Assembly: GCF_003044035.1 (NCBI RefSeq)
Contig: NZ_NVQC01000022.1
Location: forward strand, 240,001 to 272,000
Reading direction: 5' to 3'
Source: Candidatus Methylomirabilis limnetica
GTDB taxonomy: Bacteria > Methylomirabilota > Methylomirabilia > Methylomirabilales > Methylomirabilaceae
DNA length: 32,000 nucleotides
Of this stretch, positions 16,099-20,501 are shown in pieces (positions within the stretch are counted from its first letter, which is position 1; each line of letters begins with the position of its first letter). Both the position numbers and the translations under genes were made by a program. A model generated the notes under the pieces. The model did not search any database. It saw nothing but the letters and a program-made list of their open reading frames with translations, and was not told the DNA's origin.

Positions 16099-16266
16099 AG
16101 AATTCGTAACTACAAGGTAGATAGGCTGAAGGCTGAAGGCTTTTAGGGGGAAGTCGCGTGATCATACAACACTCCGAAAAGGTCTTGAATGGCTCGATTC
16201 GTGCCTTGCGAGATACTTTAGAACCTTCAGCCTTCAGCCTTCAGCCTAAAAGCCTGAGTAGTTAGC
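16099..16266 (+). mobile_element. IVS-like hairpin element E1 with a four-helix-bundle ORF remnant in the loop
   Basis: Ends are GTAACTAC and GTAGTTA(G). Arms are AGGCTGAAGGCTGAAGG and CCTTCAGCCTTCAGCCTTCAGCCT. The loop encodes ..SEKVLNGSIRALR.. on the plus strand. The 5' 25 nt are shared with 20315-20340. Confidence 0.7.
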
Positions 16267-16284
16267 GGAGTTCCGCAGGCGCCT

Positions 16285-17118
16285 TCACTCCACCCGGGCG
16301 AGTGTGTAGACTCCGACTTCCGCAGCGCCGGCAGCGAGCAGGACCTTTGCGCACTCGCCGGCTGTGGCACCGGTGGTAAAGACATCGTCAATAAGGAGGA
16401 GTCTCATGCCCTTCACCCGTTCAGACCGCGTCACAGCAAAGGCCCCCTTGACGTTTTCCTCTCGCTCTCGCCGACCCCCGCTTTGAGCCTCCGTGGCCCG
16501 GACCCTTTGCAATACACGGTGATCGACGCAGAGACCCCAGCCTGTCCCAATCTCCTTCGCCAAGAGCGCCGCCTGGTTAAAGCCTCGCGCACGCTCCCGC
16601 TTTGGATGGAGCGGAACCGGAATCAGGAGATCGAACTGGCGGGGATCAAAGAGTCGTCCGGCCCCCTCGACCATCAGACGACCGAGGTGGCGAGCAAGCG
16701 TGCGACGACCGCCGTACTTGAGCAGCAGAATGGCCTGGCGCATCGTCCGGTCCGCTTCGTACAACGCTGCCGCCCTCGCCATGGCAAAGGGTGGCAACCG
16801 CTCTCGGCAGGGTCCGCATAGGTGGCCTGGACTTTCTTCAAGGGTTCTCGGAGAGGCGAATGGCCTACCGCAGCGGGGACAGAACGGTTCGGAAACGAGC
16901 CGAACATCACGCCAGCAGCGGCCGCAGATGACGGACCGACGGGTGGCGTCCAGGGGTTGATGACACACTCGGCAGGGGGAGGGAAAAATGAGATGAAGAA
17001 AGGCTGCCAGCAGCTCCTTCAGCTCCGTTCCTCTTCCTCCTGGCAGGCAATACAGAATAGGGCAAAAGATAACGCCTCGAGCCGCTTCTCGCCGATTGGC
17101 TCGCCACACCGTTCGCAC
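16285..17118 (-). CDS. comF: ComF-family phosphoribosyltransferase-like protein
   Basis: N-terminal Cys pairs (CRVC..CGRC; CPRCG..CGPC) and a C-terminal PRTase motif LLLIDDVFTTGAT. Start is uncertain: the longest ORF overlaps the upstream gene by 100 nt. Confidence 0.8.
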   Translation of the reverse strand: MRTVWRANRREAARGVIFCPILYCLPGGRGTELKELLAAFLHLIFPSPCRVCHQPLDATRRSVICGRCWRDVRLVSEPFCPRCGRPFASPRTLEESPGHLCGPCRERLPPFAMARAAALYEADRTMRQAILLLKYGGRRTLARHLGRLMVEGAGRLFDPRQFDLLIPVPLHPKRERARGFNQAALLAKEIGTGWGLCVDHRVLQRVRATEAQSGGRREREENVKGAFAVTRSERVKGMRLLLIDDVFTTGATAGECAKVLLAAGAAEVGVYTLARVE

Positions 17119-17372
17119 TCCCCGTACTTCTTCAGCCGCATCTTCTCCAGGGCAGCATCCACCTGCTTCAATAGCTGGCGCTCAGTGTCGCTGATAGAGA
17201 GCAGAAACTCCTTCGTGTAGGCTGTCGTGGCTTGATCGGCGATGTCCTGCGTACCGTCGCTACCGGTCTCCAGATTGTCCGCCTGCTTCTCCCGTACTGT
17301 GTTTATCAACGTACGTCGCTTCTCTAACAGTTTTTCCTTTAATCGTTCCAGTAGCGCTGCCCTCAACGGCAT
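17019..17372 (-). CDS. DksA/TraR-family C4 zinc-finger protein
   Basis: C-terminus CERCGEPIGEKRLEALSFALFCIAC preceded by a coiled-coil-like region. Start chosen at the ATG with GAGAGG 7 nt upstream; the longest ORF extends to 17405. Confidence 0.8.
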   Translation of the reverse strand: MPLRAALLERLKEKLLEKRRTLINTVREKQADNLETGSDGTQDIADQATTAYTKEFLLSISDTERQLLKQVDAALEKMRLKKYGECERCGEPIGEKRLEALSFALFCIACQEEEERS

Positions 17373-17489
17373 CCCCATCACCTCTCTGCCTGTGCGTGGC
17401 CGCACGCAGGCAAGCCACCCCAGCGATTCGGAAGATCACCCTCACACTCAAAAGAGAGAGTAGAGGCTTCAGGCACGGCTAGTCCCCAA

Positions 17490-17522
17490 TAAAAAAGAAG
17501 CGAGGCTCATGAGCCCACGCCT
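17490..17522 (-). terminator. Possible intrinsic terminator after rsfS
   Basis: Minus strand reads GCGTGGGCTCATGAGCCTCGC (imperfect hairpin) followed by TTCTTTTTTATT. Confidence 0.35.
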
Positions 17523-17553
17523 CACGGGTATCGGTTTCATTTTGTTGAGGGTC

Positions 17554-17717
17554 GATACCCCGCAGCTTGCCGCCAGTTCGTCATACCGGCGAAAGCCTGT
17601 ATCCAGAGGGCCCGACTGGATTCTCCCGTATCCAGTACGGGACAGGCGTGCCAAGCACGGAATGACGGGCCAGAACAGAAGACGATACCCCGCAGCTTGC
17701 CGCAGGGAAGCTTCATT
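17554..17717. mobile_element. MITE/REP-like structured repeat, family 2, copy B (inverted relative to copy A)
   Basis: GATACCCCGCAGCTTGCCGC occurs at both ends (17554-17573 and 17684-17703). The core is collinear with the reverse complement of 2886-3032, with a ~30-nt extra segment. Confidence 0.75.
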
Positions 17718-17725
17718 CTAGCGGC

Positions 17726-18858: not shown

Positions 18859-18904
18859 TACCAGAAATGTGCGGGGCGCGAGGTGCGAAAAAGCCCACTC
18901 AACG

Positions 18905-18945
18905 CACTGCGCACCCCCTCCGAGGGGGAGGGTGAGGGAGGGGGG
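18905..18945. repeat. Diverged G/C-rich palindromic element, intergenic (proA-nadD)
   Basis: CCCCCTC-c-GAGGGGG palindrome (18914-18928) followed by a GGGTGAGGGAGGGGGGG run. Resembles the 9047-9090 copy. Confidence 0.45.
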
Positions 18946-18960
18946 GTCGCACTTCGCATA

Positions 18961-20232
18961 TCATTTAGTTGAGTCTCGCACCTGGCCATCGCCCATGACA
19001 ATGAACTTCTCGCAGGTCAGTTCCGTGAGGCCGACCGGACCGCGGGCGTGGAGTTTCTGCGTGCTTATCCCCATCTCGGCCCCCATCCCAAACTCGCCGC
19101 CGTCAGTGAAACGGGTGGAGGCGTTAACGAACACAGCACCGGCATCCACCTCCCGAAGGAAGCGCATAGCCCGGCTGTGATCCGCTGTGACGATCGCCTC
19201 GGCCAAGCCGGAGCCGTGTGCAGCGATGTGCGCCACAGCCTCTTCGAACGAGCCGACCACCTTGACCGACAGGATCAGGTCGAGATACTCGGTATCCCAG
19301 TCTACCTCGGCGGCAGATACGATACCCTGCACCAAGGCCCTTGTTCGAGGGCAACCCCGGATCTCAACCCCAGCCTCCTGCAACCGCCCGACGATTCGTG
19401 GCAAAAAGAGAGGGGCCACCCGCTCATGAACCAGTAGGCTCTCCATGGCGTTGCAGACGCCCGGTCGATCGACCTTGGCATTGAAGGCAATCTCCTCCGC
19501 CATGACGAGATCGGCCCCCTCATCAACGTAGGTGTGGCAGAGCCCTTTGTCGTGAGCCAGGATCGGAATGGTTGAGGTCCGCTGCACTGCCCGGATCAAC
19601 TCCTCGCCTCCTCTGGGGATAATCAGGTCTACGAGCCCGCTAAGCTGAAGCAAGTGTGTTACTGCCTCTCGGTCAACCGAATCGATGAAGGCCACGCAAC
19701 CCTTGGGCAGGCCGCTTCCCATGGCGGCATCCGCAAGCAGACTGCTGATGACCCTGTTGCTGCGGATCGCCTCTCGACCCCCTTTCAGAATGACGGCATT
19801 CCCTGACTTCAGGCAGAGGGCCGCCGCATCGGCGGTAACCCCTGGCCTGGCCTCGTAGATGACACCGATGACCCCGAGCGGTACCCGCATCCGGCCAACG
19901 AGCAGACCGTTTGGCCTGGGCCACATCCTGGTAATCTCCCCAACAGGATCGGAGAGCGCGGCCACCTGCCGGACGCCGGCTGCCATCTTCTCAATCCGCC
20001 TTTCGTCGAGAGCCAGCCGATCCAGGACCGCAGACGAGTGATGCTGTAACCTGGCCTCGGCTAGATCGATCTCATTAGCAGAGAGGATCTCCGCCCGGCC
20101 GTTCCACAGCGCGTCCGCTATAGCCATCAGCGCCCGATTCTTTACCTCCGGCACCACCAGGGCCAAGGCCCGAGCCGCAAGATGCGCCGCCTCCCCCAAC
20201 TCTCTGACCATCTGCATCGTCACATTGCCCAT
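18961..20232 (-). CDS. proA: Gamma-glutamyl phosphate reductase
   Basis: Aldehyde-dehydrogenase-like sequence with VIYEARP, NAVILKGG, GVCNAMESLLVH and VNASTRFTDGGEFG. Start set at M17; the longest ORF (to 20280) runs into hairpin H4. Confidence 0.9.
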   Translation of the reverse strand: MGNVTMQMVRELGEAAHLAARALALVVPEVKNRALMAIADALWNGRAEILSANEIDLAEARLQHHSSAVLDRLALDERRIEKMAAGVRQVAALSDPVGEITRMWPRPNGLLVGRMRVPLGVIGVIYEARPGVTADAAALCLKSGNAVILKGGREAIRSNRVISSLLADAAMGSGLPKGCVAFIDSVDREAVTHLLQLSGLVDLIIPRGGEELIRAVQRTSTIPILAHDKGLCHTYVDEGADLVMAEEIAFNAKVDRPGVCNAMESLLVHERVAPLFLPRIVGRLQEAGVEIRGCPRTRALVQGIVSAAEVDWDTEYLDLILSVKVVGSFEEAVAHIAAHGSGLAEAIVTADHSRAMRFLREVDAGAVFVNASTRFTDGGEFGMGAEMGISTQKLHARGPVGLTELTCEKFIVMGDGQVRDSTK

Positions 20233-20248
20233 CGGTGTGAAAGTCCCA

Positions 20249-20306
20249 GTTTCTAGTTTCGAGTTTCGAGTCCTCCCCAACTTAAAACTCGAAACTCGAG
20301 ACTATT
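20249..20306. repeat. Tandem-heptad hairpin H4
   Basis: TTTCGAGTTTCGAG (20257-20270) pairs with CTCGAAACTCGAGA (20288-20301). Loop of 17 nt. Confidence 0.8.
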
Positions 20307-20314
20307 CTTATGCC

Positions 20315-20501
20315 AGAATCGTAACTACAAGGTAGATAGACTGTAGGCTGTTAGACTGTAGGAACGCGCACAGATGAGCCAGGCGTTTGCCGAATGCGAC
20401 GCGAAAATGATGGAGACCGAAAAGGTTCTGGGCGCTTTGATTCGGTCCATGCGCAATGGCTAACAGCCTTCAGCCTACAGCCTAAACACCTGAGTAGTTA
20501 C
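20315..20501 (+). mobile_element. IVS-like hairpin element E2 with a 29-codon four-helix-bundle ORF remnant (20374-20463)
   Basis: Ends are GTAACTAC and GTAGTTAC. Arms are CTGTAGGCTGTTAGACTGTAGG and CTAACAGCCTTCAGCCTACAGCC. Loop ORF reads MSQAFAECDAKMMETEKVLGALIRSMRNG*. The right end provides the last codons and stop of proB on the other strand. Confidence 0.7.

Follow-up and report, generated by a model that had tools for sequence, protein, structure and literature searches.

The window, a 32,000-nt stretch of Candidatus Methylomirabilis limnetica DNA (contig NZ_NVQC01000022.1, positions 240,001 to 272,000), contains two similar elements, one upstream of gap and one at the end of proB. What are they, and did they move to these sites? 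A preliminary description had taken them for decayed relatives of the intervening sequences (IVSs) of 23S rRNA. The range that it quoted, 16099–20501, includes five ordinary genes outside both elements: comF-like, dksA, rsfS, nadD and proA.

Segments 16106–16265 and 20321–20501 have common termini, GTAACTACAAGGTAGATAG ... CCTGAGTAGTTA(C/G), as well as inverted heptad arms and loop peptides. At the left end, the 21-nt TCGTAACTACAAGGTAGATAG is identical at 16104–16124 and 20319–20339. The window has just two occurrences of the 19-mer GTAACTACAAGGTAGATAG, even with 3 mismatches tolerated, and 0 of 100 shuffles matched it. The right ends, CAGCCT..CCTGAGTAGTTA, are 92% identical over 37 nt, bearing out the common right end described earlier. 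The common start of ~25 nt fared less well; the 21 nt are identical, but comparison of 31 copies placed the AGAAT(T)C part in host flank, with the element proper beginning at G16106 in element 1 and G20321 in element 2. Ahead of element 1, this flank may be a decayed target duplication. The terminal inverted pair was present as described, GTAACTAC/GTAGTTAC, with G rather than C as the final base of element 1. TRF agreed with the tandem-heptad arms, finding AGGCTGA ×2.7 at 16123–16141 and CCTTCAG ×3.4 at 16224–16247 in element 1, and ACAGCCT ×3.1 at 20463–20484 in element 2. Each element is predicted to fold, on both strands, as a single long imperfect hairpin (-67 to -74 kcal/mol). Translation returned the loop peptides as first written, ..SEKVLNGSIRALRD.. 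and MSQAFAECDAKMMETEKVLGALIRSMRNG*. Below, 4HB denotes the four-helix-bundle gene or protein. The features of element 1 are:

16106–16265, + strand: element 1, 160 nt; a non-coding 4HB cassette copy with internal deletion, of subfamily A (GGCTGAA heptads)
16098–16105, + strand: left flank, TAGAATTC, equal to the right flank CGGAGTTC (16266–16273) at only 5 of 8 positions
16106–16124, + strand: left terminus, GTAACTACAAGGTAGATAG, its first 8 nt being the terminal inverted repeat
16122–16142, + strand: left heptad arm, GGCTGAA, about 3 units
16157–16174, + strand: N-terminal 4HB remnant, RDHTTL from MRDHTKL, by translation and alignment with copies L020 and L027
16173–16214, + strand: what survives of the C-terminal 4HB helix, SEKVLNGSIRALRD, in a different frame from the N-terminal remnant
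16222–16248, + strand: right heptad arm, CCTTCAG, about 3.5 units
16253–16265, + strand: right terminus, CCTGAGTAGTTAG

Those of element 2 and the proB end are:

20321–20501, + strand: element 2, 181 nt; a 4HB cassette copy with internal deletion, of subfamily B (GGCTGTA heptads)
20313–20320, + strand: left copy of the target-site duplication, CCAGAATC, the reverse complement of GATTCTGG
20321–20339, + strand: left terminus, GTAACTACAAGGTAGATAG
20340–20362, + strand: left heptad arm, ACTGTAGG CTGTTAG ACTGTAGG
20374–20463, + strand: 29-codon mini-ORF, its last 22 codons (20395–20460) being the in-frame 4HB C-terminal helix
20463–20484, + strand: right heptad arm, CAGCCTT CAGCCTA CAGCCTA
20489–20501, + strand: right terminus, CCTGAGTAGTTAC
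20502–20509, + strand: right copy of the target-site duplication, ACAGTATC, the reverse complement of GATACTGT
20482–20504, - strand: new proB 3' end supplied by element 2, in place of the C-terminus ..LVILV* that the relative has

We scanned public DNA for the left end and found more than 30 copies, all except one from Candidatus Methylomirabilis (NC10) MAGs or metagenomes. Two of them, L009 and L053, are intact at 445 nt, and their termini and tandem-heptad arms are the same as those of the window elements. The intact cassette of ~445 bp is bounded by a perfect terminal inverted repeat of 8 nt, GTAACTAC/GTAGTTAC, that continues as an imperfect ~40-bp stem with 3–4 tandem heptads (GGCTGWA facing TWCAGCC). 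Its loop holds only one gene, of 118 codons, encoding a TIGR02436/PF05635 four-helix-bundle protein ('23S rRNA IVS protein'). The 118-aa ORF product of L009 scored 108 bits on TIGR02436 (cut-off 24 bits) and 104.9 bits on PF05635 (cut-off 33.8 bits), and matched PDB 2GSC (XCC0516) with E 1.7e-23. At the inner end of the left arm, the last heptad of several intact copies runs into the Shine-Dalgarno of the ORF (..CTGTAGGAGG..N7-8..ATG), so stem formation is predicted to mask 4HB translation. An intact copy lies beside a deleted one at locus L043.

All shorter copies are internal deletions with both ends kept, and aligning them gave the graded decay series that had been anticipated, with nested deletions leading from intact copies through the window copies to 92-nt short-loop hairpins. 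Element 1 aligned over its full length with 11 further A-type copies (92–252 nt), and an HMM of the 4HB family recognised the longer ones (L027, L011, L013) with E-values between 1e-8 and 1e-12. Against L020 and L027, element 1 lacks 2 nt, a deletion that removed its start ATG; the junction of its internal deletion recurs in L028, L020 and L017. Element 2 has the ends and arms of L009 and L053, and a deletion junction identical in at least nine copies at other loci. Comparison with the intact sequence traced the first 7 codons of its mini-ORF to a shifted frame; the mini-ORF matched the L009 ORF by tblastn (E 3e-8), and 20362–20460 matched the family HMM (E 5e-9). Together with the intact copies and the deletion series, these matches uphold the earlier identification of the loops as remnants of a TIGR02436/PF05635 gene; family similarity was found, and the intact members bear the repeat stems. 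By this comparison, elements 1 and 2 are decayed copies of the ~445-base cassette.

Deleted forms with identical junctions occur at many loci, and these junctions lack microhomology, which argues that deleted forms spread as non-autonomous, MITE-like copies. Junctions of the B-165 class differ slightly and fall within a direct repeat, suggesting that some deletion classes arose repeatedly and that short copies need not all transpose short. L006 and L012 represent one site with two deletion classes, pointing to gene conversion or in-place decay as an extra process.

Evidence for mobility came from the flanks. Among 31 copies, the two 8-nt flanks matched at all 8 positions in 8, at 7 in 5 and at 6 in 4 (at least 6 in 17 of 31); controls averaged 2.09 matches, and 0.8% of them reached 6 or more. 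The intact copy L053 has its own target duplication, with flanks GAAATCTC and AAAATCTC. Element 2 interrupts proB within its final two codons and runs antisense to the operon; the proB stop codon TAG is now inside the element. The empty proB site of L044 reads ..CTGGT GATACTGG TATAA.., with GATACTGG once and no arms whatever; the window reads ..GATACTGT(element)GATTCTGG CATAA.., the L044 site being duplicated around element 2. The 8-bp duplication encloses the entire unit, arms and termini included. In three related genomes (L044, L045 and L046), 45 kb of syntenic DNA contained no copies; element 2 is absent there, as is element 1 from the orthologous comF–gap spacer. For element 1, a flanking stretch of ~70 nt also differs in these genomes, so there is no clean empty site. 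Relative to host genes, 8 copies had the same orientation and 5 the opposite. On the evidence of these junctions, the 4HB cassette is mobile and duplicates 8 bp of its target upon insertion, and both window copies are insertions specific to this lineage, one upstream of gap and one in the last proB codons.

Intact ORFs have dN/dS of 0.07–0.12, demonstrating strong purifying selection. The best 120 homologues are 79–100% identical, with named sources comprising NC10-type contigs, Verrucomicrobiota, WS2 and Thermodesulfobacteriota; intact ORFs across these four groups share 79–97% identity. CTGTAGG/CCTACAG arms again flank these homologues, with related termini, although conservation does not extend to the 8 terminal nt of the Verrucomicrobiota copies. 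To judge from ORFs and flanks together, one cassette, arms included, is present in several phyla. Across phyla the arms are conserved about as well as third codon positions and no more, a level that does not demonstrate selection on them.

The best overall explanation, which we hold to be very probably correct, is that a small cassette resembling a DNA transposon gave rise to both window elements, which are now dead and have lost internal sequence. A fixed 8-bp duplication is the signature of DDE transposases, and movement would be by staggered-cut, DDE-type transposition, with termini and subterminal heptads as cis sites. No recognisable transposase is encoded by the cassette, so the enzyme would be supplied in trans. 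Neither a transposase nor a reverse transcriptase adjoins L009 or L053, and ~300 kb of examined DNA contained no longer element with the same ends; with no such source found, the enzymatic step is one that we purely infer. The 4HB protein might be an accessory nucleic-acid-binding factor for transposition, or selfish cargo. In host RNA, the long stem is predicted to be an RNase III substrate, by analogy with 23S rRNA IVSs, and its cleavage would account for tolerance of this element type in rRNA helices and between cistrons.

Could the cassette instead be autonomous, with the 4HB protein itself (perhaps a pentameric ring, as XCC0516 and Avd) recognising the heptad arms and driving or recruiting integration? 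The intact unit has the 4HB ORF alone, yet has its own target duplication; no transposase is nearby; and cassette and arms occur in several phyla, and the ORF is strongly constrained by purifying selection. In each of three unrelated lineages the 4HB gene also has heptad arms of its own (NC10 GGCTGWA, Xanthomonadales GGGAATC, Coxiella GACAGAT), a lineage-specific pairing expected if protein and repeats co-evolve. We nevertheless think it unlikely. Solved relatives are small helical bundles, we know of no catalytic motif in the family, Avd is an accessory factor to the reverse transcriptase of DGRs rather than an enzyme, and the fixed duplication points to DDE transposases. Moreover, the Xanthomonadales copy occupies a single conserved accB–accC site in Xanthomonas and Dyella, and looks vertically inherited, not actively mobile. 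An RNA intermediate, in which RNase III would release hairpin RNA for a reverse transcriptase (from the host, or of group II/DGR type) to copy, with the 4HB protein as Avd-like cofactor and the cDNA then integrated, is quite improbable. The element type is indeed known in 23S rRNA as a transcribed, RNase III-excised RNA, and the intact ORF matched Avd models (NF033474, 25.9 bits, E 9e-6; PF22296, 18.5 bits, E 0.003; PHROG 3206, E 2.5e-7). Every one of these scores is under the family cut-off; the similarity is weak but real, and the cassette protein is a distant relative of Avd. Precise terminal inverted repeats, a fixed 8-bp duplication, the lack of a 3' tail and insertion in both orientations relative to host transcription all argue against this route, and no reverse transcriptase adjoins any examined copy.

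There is very little probability that the hairpins are host structural or regulatory features (REP-like mRNA stabilisers, RNase III sites or terminators) whose loops a 4HB gene secondarily invaded, later to be lost from the window copies. ORF-less heptad hairpins of other families are abundant in operon spacers of the window and its relatives, where they are strain-variable, and inverted heptamer pairs abound in Xanthomonas too. For the GGCTGWA family, however, duplication around the whole unit and the armless empty site of L044 contradict a pre-existing host hairpin, and short copies still hold ORF remnants from both gene ends. A chance match of the 4HB peptides in low-information helical sequence is scarcely credible; hmmscan of both loop peptides against Pfam and NCBIfam returned nothing, even at E ≤10, but they are too short for its filters, and this reading is refuted by DNA continuity from intact genes through the deletion series to the window copies, together with the HMM and tblastn matches of element 2.

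The transposon-like cassette resembles bacterial MITEs and mobile insertion cassettes in its terminal inverted repeats and fixed-length target duplication. Those are small elements bounded by terminal inverted repeats and mobilised in trans, some with passenger ORFs. Also MITE-like are its size (92–445 bp), multicopy and mostly intergenic occurrence, hairpin-foldable sequence, spreading internal-deletion derivatives, and insertion into gene ends that extends or replaces C-termini. It differs in that our searches revealed no parental IS or transposase bearing its ends, in that the 'master' copy codes only for a conserved 4HB protein that is under purifying selection, and in that one cassette, with arms made of tandem heptads, is shared across phyla. 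Avd, the accessory variability determinant of DGRs, belongs to a homologous four-helix-bundle fold family, the weak matches notwithstanding; unlike Avd, the cassette comes with no reverse transcriptase, template or variable repeats in the copies examined.

The preliminary description had extended its proposal to the other short-loop hairpins of the window, as further-reduced derivatives, and for this part we found no direct support. These belong to heptad families TTTCGRG, AGGGTNT, GTTCAAN and GTTCRTA, all without GTAACTAC termini, and no target duplication was seen around them. HMM search detected no 4HB remnant in them or elsewhere in ~45 kb of syntenic DNA, nor did we find a 4HB gene with any of these heptads. 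In Xanthomonas and Dyella, GGGAATC/GATTCCC arms flank the 4HB gene between accB and accC, and Rehm et al. counted 70 inverted GGGAATC pairs in X. campestris (PMC4692102). This pairing of a 4HB gene with a dispersed heptamer makes it plausible, by analogy, that the other window hairpins derive from the same element type. Such heptads, tandem and often in convergent inverted pairs in intergenic spacers (PMC4692102; PMC2700814), include GGGAATC of Xanthomonas, GGGGAYT/STRR of Nostoc and Anabaena, and the Geobacter heptanucleotide families. Unlike the cassette, they were published as simple sequence repeats able to form G-quadruplexes, or as putative regulatory sites, and we found no published link to a gene or mobile element (PMC4692102; PMC2700814).

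The likeness to IVSs proved sound. In the Coxiella burnetii 23S rRNA IVS, RNase III cuts a terminal stem of 28 bp, and 3–4 tandem heptamers lie upstream of an S23p ORF (PMC4990558); the cassette shares this architecture of terminal inverted-repeat stem, loop ORF and ORF-adjacent heptamers. Terminal inverted repeats in a long stem and a PF05635/S23p loop ORF are common also to the Leptospira type. ORF-bearing IVSs measure 428–444 nt against 445 nt for the cassette, and in Coxiella, as here, the heptamers lie directly upstream of the ORF with strain-variable copy number, and the ORF has signs of decay (PMC4990558). The heptads differ (GGCTGWA in the cassette, GACAGAT in Coxiella), and cassette copies lie outside rRNA, between protein genes or at their 3' ends, in both orientations. 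RNase III excision is established for 23S rRNA IVSs; for the cassette it is a prediction. Mobility and horizontal transfer of ORF-bearing IVSs have long been suspected (PMC4990558). In the cassette, target duplications of 8 bp are explicit, and there are empty sites and numerous non-autonomous deletion derivatives; we found no published report of any of these among IVSs. The cassette provides direct sequence evidence for transposition of this long-puzzling type of element.

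Both hairpin elements lie in a minus-strand housekeeping cluster with the gene order ..recN-rplU-rpmA-obg-proB-proA-nadD-rsfS-dksA-comF-gap-pgk-tpi... Both were present where the preliminary description had placed them.

The two elements of the window.
16106-16265, antisense to the operon: element 1 (160 nt, subfamily A), in the comF-gap spacer
20321-20501, antisense to the operon: element 2 (181 nt, subfamily B), at the proB 3' end

The elements share their ends as described, the left 21 nt being identical and the right 37 nt 92% identical, and both have the inverted terminal pair GTAACTAC/GTAGTTAC as well as inverted arms built of tandem heptads. 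AGAAT(T)C, previously taken as the element start, proved on comparison of 31 copies to be host flank instead; in these 31 copies the terminal inverted repeats (TIRs) are GTAACTAC...GTAGTTAC, with an imperfect stem beyond. Each window element, read on either strand, folds into a single long, imperfect hairpin. Exactly two occurrences of the 19-mer GTAACTACAAGGTAGATAG were counted in the window, a number that did not rise when three mismatches were allowed, and 0 of 100 shuffles matched. The window contains no rRNA or other Rfam family; its two copies are placed among protein genes, one in a spacer and one at a gene's 3' end, rather than in a 23S rRNA helix (9, 25 or 45). A gap promoter-like TTGACA-N17-TATAAA at 15990-16070 (minus), ~35 nt from element 1, is kept in L044, L045 and L046, syntenic loci of related genomes; element 1 is therefore inserted a short way upstream of a gap promoter that seems to be intact.

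The loops had been interpreted as remnants of a gene for the four-helix-bundle (4HB) protein family (TIGR02436/PF05635, '23S rRNA IVS protein', where IVS is an intervening sequence of 23S rRNA). The quoted translations of both loops and the C-terminal motif given for the family are correct, and the interpretation is upheld by intact copies, the family HMM, tblastn and DNA alignment. A direct hmmscan search of Pfam and NCBIfam with the loop peptides (33 and 42 residues) gave no match, because such queries are too short. Scanning bacterial genomes, one per species, for the exact left end yielded 7 loci, each in a Candidatus Methylomirabilis MAG, and the scan of metagenomes gave 24. The intact copy that the preliminary description had proposed to look for, with the same terminal motif and arms, exists at locus L009: 445 nt, with CTGTAGG/CCTACAG arms around a 118-codon ORF. 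This ORF scored 108 bits with TIGR02436 (cut-off 24) and 104.9 bits with PF05635 (cut-off 33.8), and matched PDB 2GSC, the XCC0516 structure, at E 1.7e-23; its matches to models of Avd, the accessory protein of diversity-generating retroelements (DGRs), were weak. Searching by protein led to a further intact copy, L053.

The HMM and tblastn searches suggested earlier both succeeded for element 2. A custom family HMM built from 120 close homologues matched window 20362-20460 at E 5e-9 among 9,394 six-frame ORFs, and tblastn detected the same remnant at E 3e-8. Element 1 had no direct match to the custom HMM among these 9,394 ORFs. Longer A-type copies (loci L027, L011, L013, L029 and L002), themselves matched by the custom HMM at E 1e-8 to 1e-12, align with it from end to end. 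No intact A-type copy was found, and the ..VLNGLIRALR.. tail occurs in 0 of the 120 best homologues, so the identity of element 1 rests on DNA alignment to the longer A-type remnants.

What survives of the gene is small, and hmmscan detected no full four-helix domain in the window loop peptides. In element 1, a 2-nt deletion removed the ATG; 6 codons from the N-terminus and 14 from the C-terminus remain, mutually out of frame. In element 2, 7 frame-shifted codons precede the final 22 codons of the gene, which are in frame, so that only the last helix is left. Both are 4HB gene fragments unable to encode a four-helix bundle, and are not functional members of the family. Variable sites in the 29-codon mini-ORF number 6, 6 and 13 by codon position, a difference that is not significant, and part of this variation may be inherited from master copies.

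Alignment of the copies gave the decay series that had been envisaged: all short copies arose by internal deletion, with both ends kept.

Length classes of the copies.
Subfamily B (GGCTGTA heptads): 445 nt, intact; 181 nt; 165-169 nt
Subfamily A (GGCTGAA heptads): 252 nt; 216-230 nt; 150-162 nt, including the window copy; 133 nt; 92-100 nt

The 181-nt class comprises the window copy and at least 9 others. Its junction, GGAACGCGC|ACAGATGAGCC, is identical at ten loci and lacks microhomology, so one deleted form has multiplied. By contrast, junctions in the 165-nt class differ slightly from one another inside the direct repeat GGCGGTCTTGAT / GGCGCCTTGAT, indicating that this deletion recurs independently. 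Three further observations together suggest recombination or gene conversion between copies: one 4HB element is nested within another (L021, 1455-1706), a loop is inverted relative to its arms (L023, 1976-2156), and orthologous sites in L006 and L012 hold different deletion classes.

Evidence of mobility came from the flanks. Among the 31 copies, 8-nt flanking direct repeats matched at 8/8 positions in 8, at 7/8 in 5 and at 6/8 in 4; flank matches of at least 6/8 were thus found in 17 of 31 copies, versus 0.8% of offset controls (control mean, 2.09 matches). The intact copy L053 is flanked by GAAATCTC and AAAATCTC. Three syntenic loci (45 kb total) were retrieved via ProB orthologues, L044 being the closest. 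At the proB end, L044 has the empty site ..CTGGT GATACTGG TATAA GAATAGTC.., where the window has ..CTGGT GATACTGT [element] GATTCTGG CATAA GAATAGTC... This is a textbook pair of empty and filled sites, with an 8-bp duplication and one later substitution in each copy. Insertion of element 2 was into the last two proB codons, replacing ..LVILV* and providing a new stop codon inside the element. The closest protein-collection match of ProB (20485-21696) is 92% identical. No copy of the 4HB family was found in the 45 kb of the three syntenic loci, so both window copies are lineage-specific. Element 1 has a 5/8 flank match, and no clean empty site for it was found in the comF-gap spacer of the relatives, because that spacer differs from theirs by a further ~70-nt stretch. 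Copies showed no evident orientation bias relative to host genes, 8 being co-oriented with their neighbours and 5 opposite.

Relatives of the cassette are numerous. The L009 protein has >7,900 relatives at E <=1e-10; the best 120 of these are 79-100% identical to it, with Verrucomicrobiota, candidate division WS2 and Thermodesulfobacteriota among their named sources. In the contexts that we fetched (two loci from Verrucomicrobiota, one from Thermodesulfobacteriota and an sdhC-sdhA locus without assignment), the same heptads, with related termini, stand on both sides of the ORF, and at L043 an intact copy adjoins a deleted one. Pairwise dN/dS of intact ORFs was 0.07-0.12, with dS ranging from 0.6 to saturation, indicating that the 4HB protein is functional and that the spread is not merely recent contamination. 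Identity of the arms across phyla is about equal to that of third codon positions, so we make no claim of selection on the arms. The whole PF05635/TIGR02436 family comprises 17,616 clusters at 50% identity (E <=0.001), many of whose best matches are partial, which fits frequent decay. No 4HB relatives were found in viral contigs, and PADLOC gave no defence-system match.

Several known systems resemble the cassette in part. REP/BIME sequences are short palindromes, rich in GC, that lack target duplications and go with RAYT tyrosine transposases; the cassette copies differ in being 92-445 nt long with TIRs and 8-bp duplications, and no RAYT was seen in our limited data. A DGR of the Avd-TR-RT type, in which an Avd reaching its equivalog score stands beside an RT gene and a template/variable repeat pair, is a poor fit, since the Avd model NF033474 gave 25.9 bits against a cut-off of 80; no RT gene was found in the context tables or beside L009. 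The cassette resembles MITEs, or non-autonomous DNA transposons, in several respects: there are TIRs and an 8-bp target duplication with the empty site GATACTGG in L044, and the copies are multiple and small, lack a transposase gene, and have deletion junctions common to different loci. IS66-family ends begin with GTAA, and the family makes 8-bp duplications; we take the resemblance of the cassette to IS66 to be a lead only.

The Coxiella IVS is alike in anatomy. It is 428-444 nt long; RNase III cuts its 28-bp terminal stem, the loop holds the S23p ORF, and directly upstream of this ORF are GACAGAT heptamers in tandem, three or four of them, the number varying with the strain (PMC4990558). Folds of the window copies and L009 likewise have a terminal complementary stem, with the intact ORF of L009 in the loop, and tandem heptamers adjoin the ORF, although the heptad sequence is different. 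Mobility of the Coxiella IVS is hypothesised only, and 23S rRNA IVSs have been called possible mobile-element relics since ~1990 without direct evidence (PMC4990558). A third case is in Xanthomonas campestris and Dyella, where an XCC0516-family gene between accB and accC has GGGAATC units upstream and GATTCCC-type units downstream. Rehm et al. (PMC4692102) counted 186 GGGAATC sites in X. campestris, including 70 convergent inverted pairs, and drew no link to the accB-accC 4HB gene. Coxiella, Xanthomonadales and the Methylomirabilis type are therefore three unrelated lineages in which a 4HB gene has its own heptad arms. Our literature search, with most subscription journals outside its coverage, found nothing on these elements, their target duplications or a link between 4HB genes and heptamers.

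The preliminary description had further proposed that the remaining hairpins of the window are more reduced derivatives of the same element. They are short-loop hairpins of the tandem heptads GTTTCGR, AGGGTNT, GTTCRTA and GTTCAAN that fill operon spacers.

Heptad hairpins of other families in the window.
8684-8771: heptad hairpin in a spacer
9988-10067: heptad hairpin in a spacer
12701-12784: heptad hairpin in a spacer
13551-13663: heptad hairpin in a spacer
14842-14940: heptad hairpin in a spacer
20244-20305: heptad hairpin
23148-23181: heptad hairpin
8591-8640: heptad hairpin
12280-12309: heptad hairpin
21723-21840, minus: TTTCGAG/CCGAAAC hairpin inside the obg frame, encoding the Obg C-terminal tail

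One part of the proposal holds: the copies of 92-100 nt at L004 and L005 prove that this element type can be reduced to nothing more than a short-loop hairpin. As to the rest, the other heptad hairpins lack GTAACTAC termini, no duplications were seen around them, and no 4HB remnant was detected within them when two HMMs were run on six-frame ORFs from the window and from every locus. Extension of a 4HB origin to all heptad hairpins is a good hypothesis. Across the four syntenic genomes these hairpins are strikingly unstable, the same spacer being empty or holding a different family. Between rplU and rpmA, the window and L045 carry a GTTCAAN hairpin, L044 and L046 one of AGGGTNT type; between proB and proA, L046 has a spacer of 4 nt, and the window, L044 and L045 have a TTTCGAG hairpin. 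The hairpin in the obg tail keeps the ATGA overlap with proB, in the same arrangement in L044 and L045; L046 encodes the tail in another palindromic repeat.

Other repeats were noted. A second MITE-like family of ~150 nt has inverted copies at 2887-3033 and 17560-17712, 92-93% identical, ending in CCCCGCAGCAAGCCGCGGGG-type palindromes. The latter copy accounts for ~142 nt extra in the rsfS-dksA spacer relative to L044-L046, and a piece related to this family is inserted inside the 4HB element at L015. A third family, CCCCCCTTTnnnAAAGGGGGG then GGGGGGATTT, occurs at 7338-7379 and 27557-27602, and also in the proA-nadD spacer and the obg tail of L046; it thus occupies spacers and one coding 3' end. 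A 70-nt inverted repeat starting ATAGGGACAGACACTATTTATTGA (36-105 / 30987-31056; 93% complementary, 30.9 kb between arms) may represent the ends of another element or two copies of one. A tandem array of the 9-mer CCTTAGCGT, ~4-5 units, lies at 28290-28335, just upstream of a gene ending at 28326.

The two window elements are rightly regarded as decayed, non-autonomous copies of an IVS-type 4HB cassette that is demonstrably transposable. The data show how the cassette is built, that it is flanked by an 8-bp duplication and has an empty counterpart site, that deleted copies have propagated, that its ORF is under purifying selection and that it occurs in several phyla. A DDE-type staggered-cut reaction could act on the termini and subterminal heptads. 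Its enzyme would be supplied in trans, since we found no transposase beside the intact copies L009 and L053, nor, in ~300 kb of fetched loci, any transposase-bearing element with the same ends. The 4HB protein would be an accessory factor or cargo. Once transcribed, the stem may, by analogy, be cleaved by RNase III. It may also mask a putative Shine-Dalgarno sequence of the 4HB ORF; the innermost heptad at L042, L043 and L055 makes up a Shine-Dalgarno-like sequence (..CTGTAGGAGG..).

Structures have been solved for PF05635/TIGR02436, and we know of no function for the family apart from its distant Avd branch. We tentatively offer a broader proposal, which we think possible but doubtful: that 4HB cassettes are widespread, unrecognised, very small mobile elements; that the protein and its own heptad arms are a co-evolving pair needed for spread or maintenance; that ORF-bearing 23S rRNA IVSs are copies landed in tolerant helices; and that over-represented intergenic heptamer hairpins (Xanthomonas GGGAATC, cyanobacterial STRRs, the other hairpins of the window) are decayed footprints.

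Direct evidence for the old hypothesis of IVS mobility, limited to non-rRNA relatives, thus comes from the defined ends, the 8-bp duplications with an empty site, the presence of both intact and non-autonomous copies, and a spread across phyla with strong purifying selection on the protein. At 445 bp the cassette is a testable system that can be synthesised, marked and assayed. For annotation, insertions rewrite gene ends, as in the proB of this genome, which gains an element-encoded C-terminus and stop codon, and they place long RNase III-type stems inside operons. The findings also suggest a concrete source for the heptamer repeats whose excess between bacterial genes has had no explanation.
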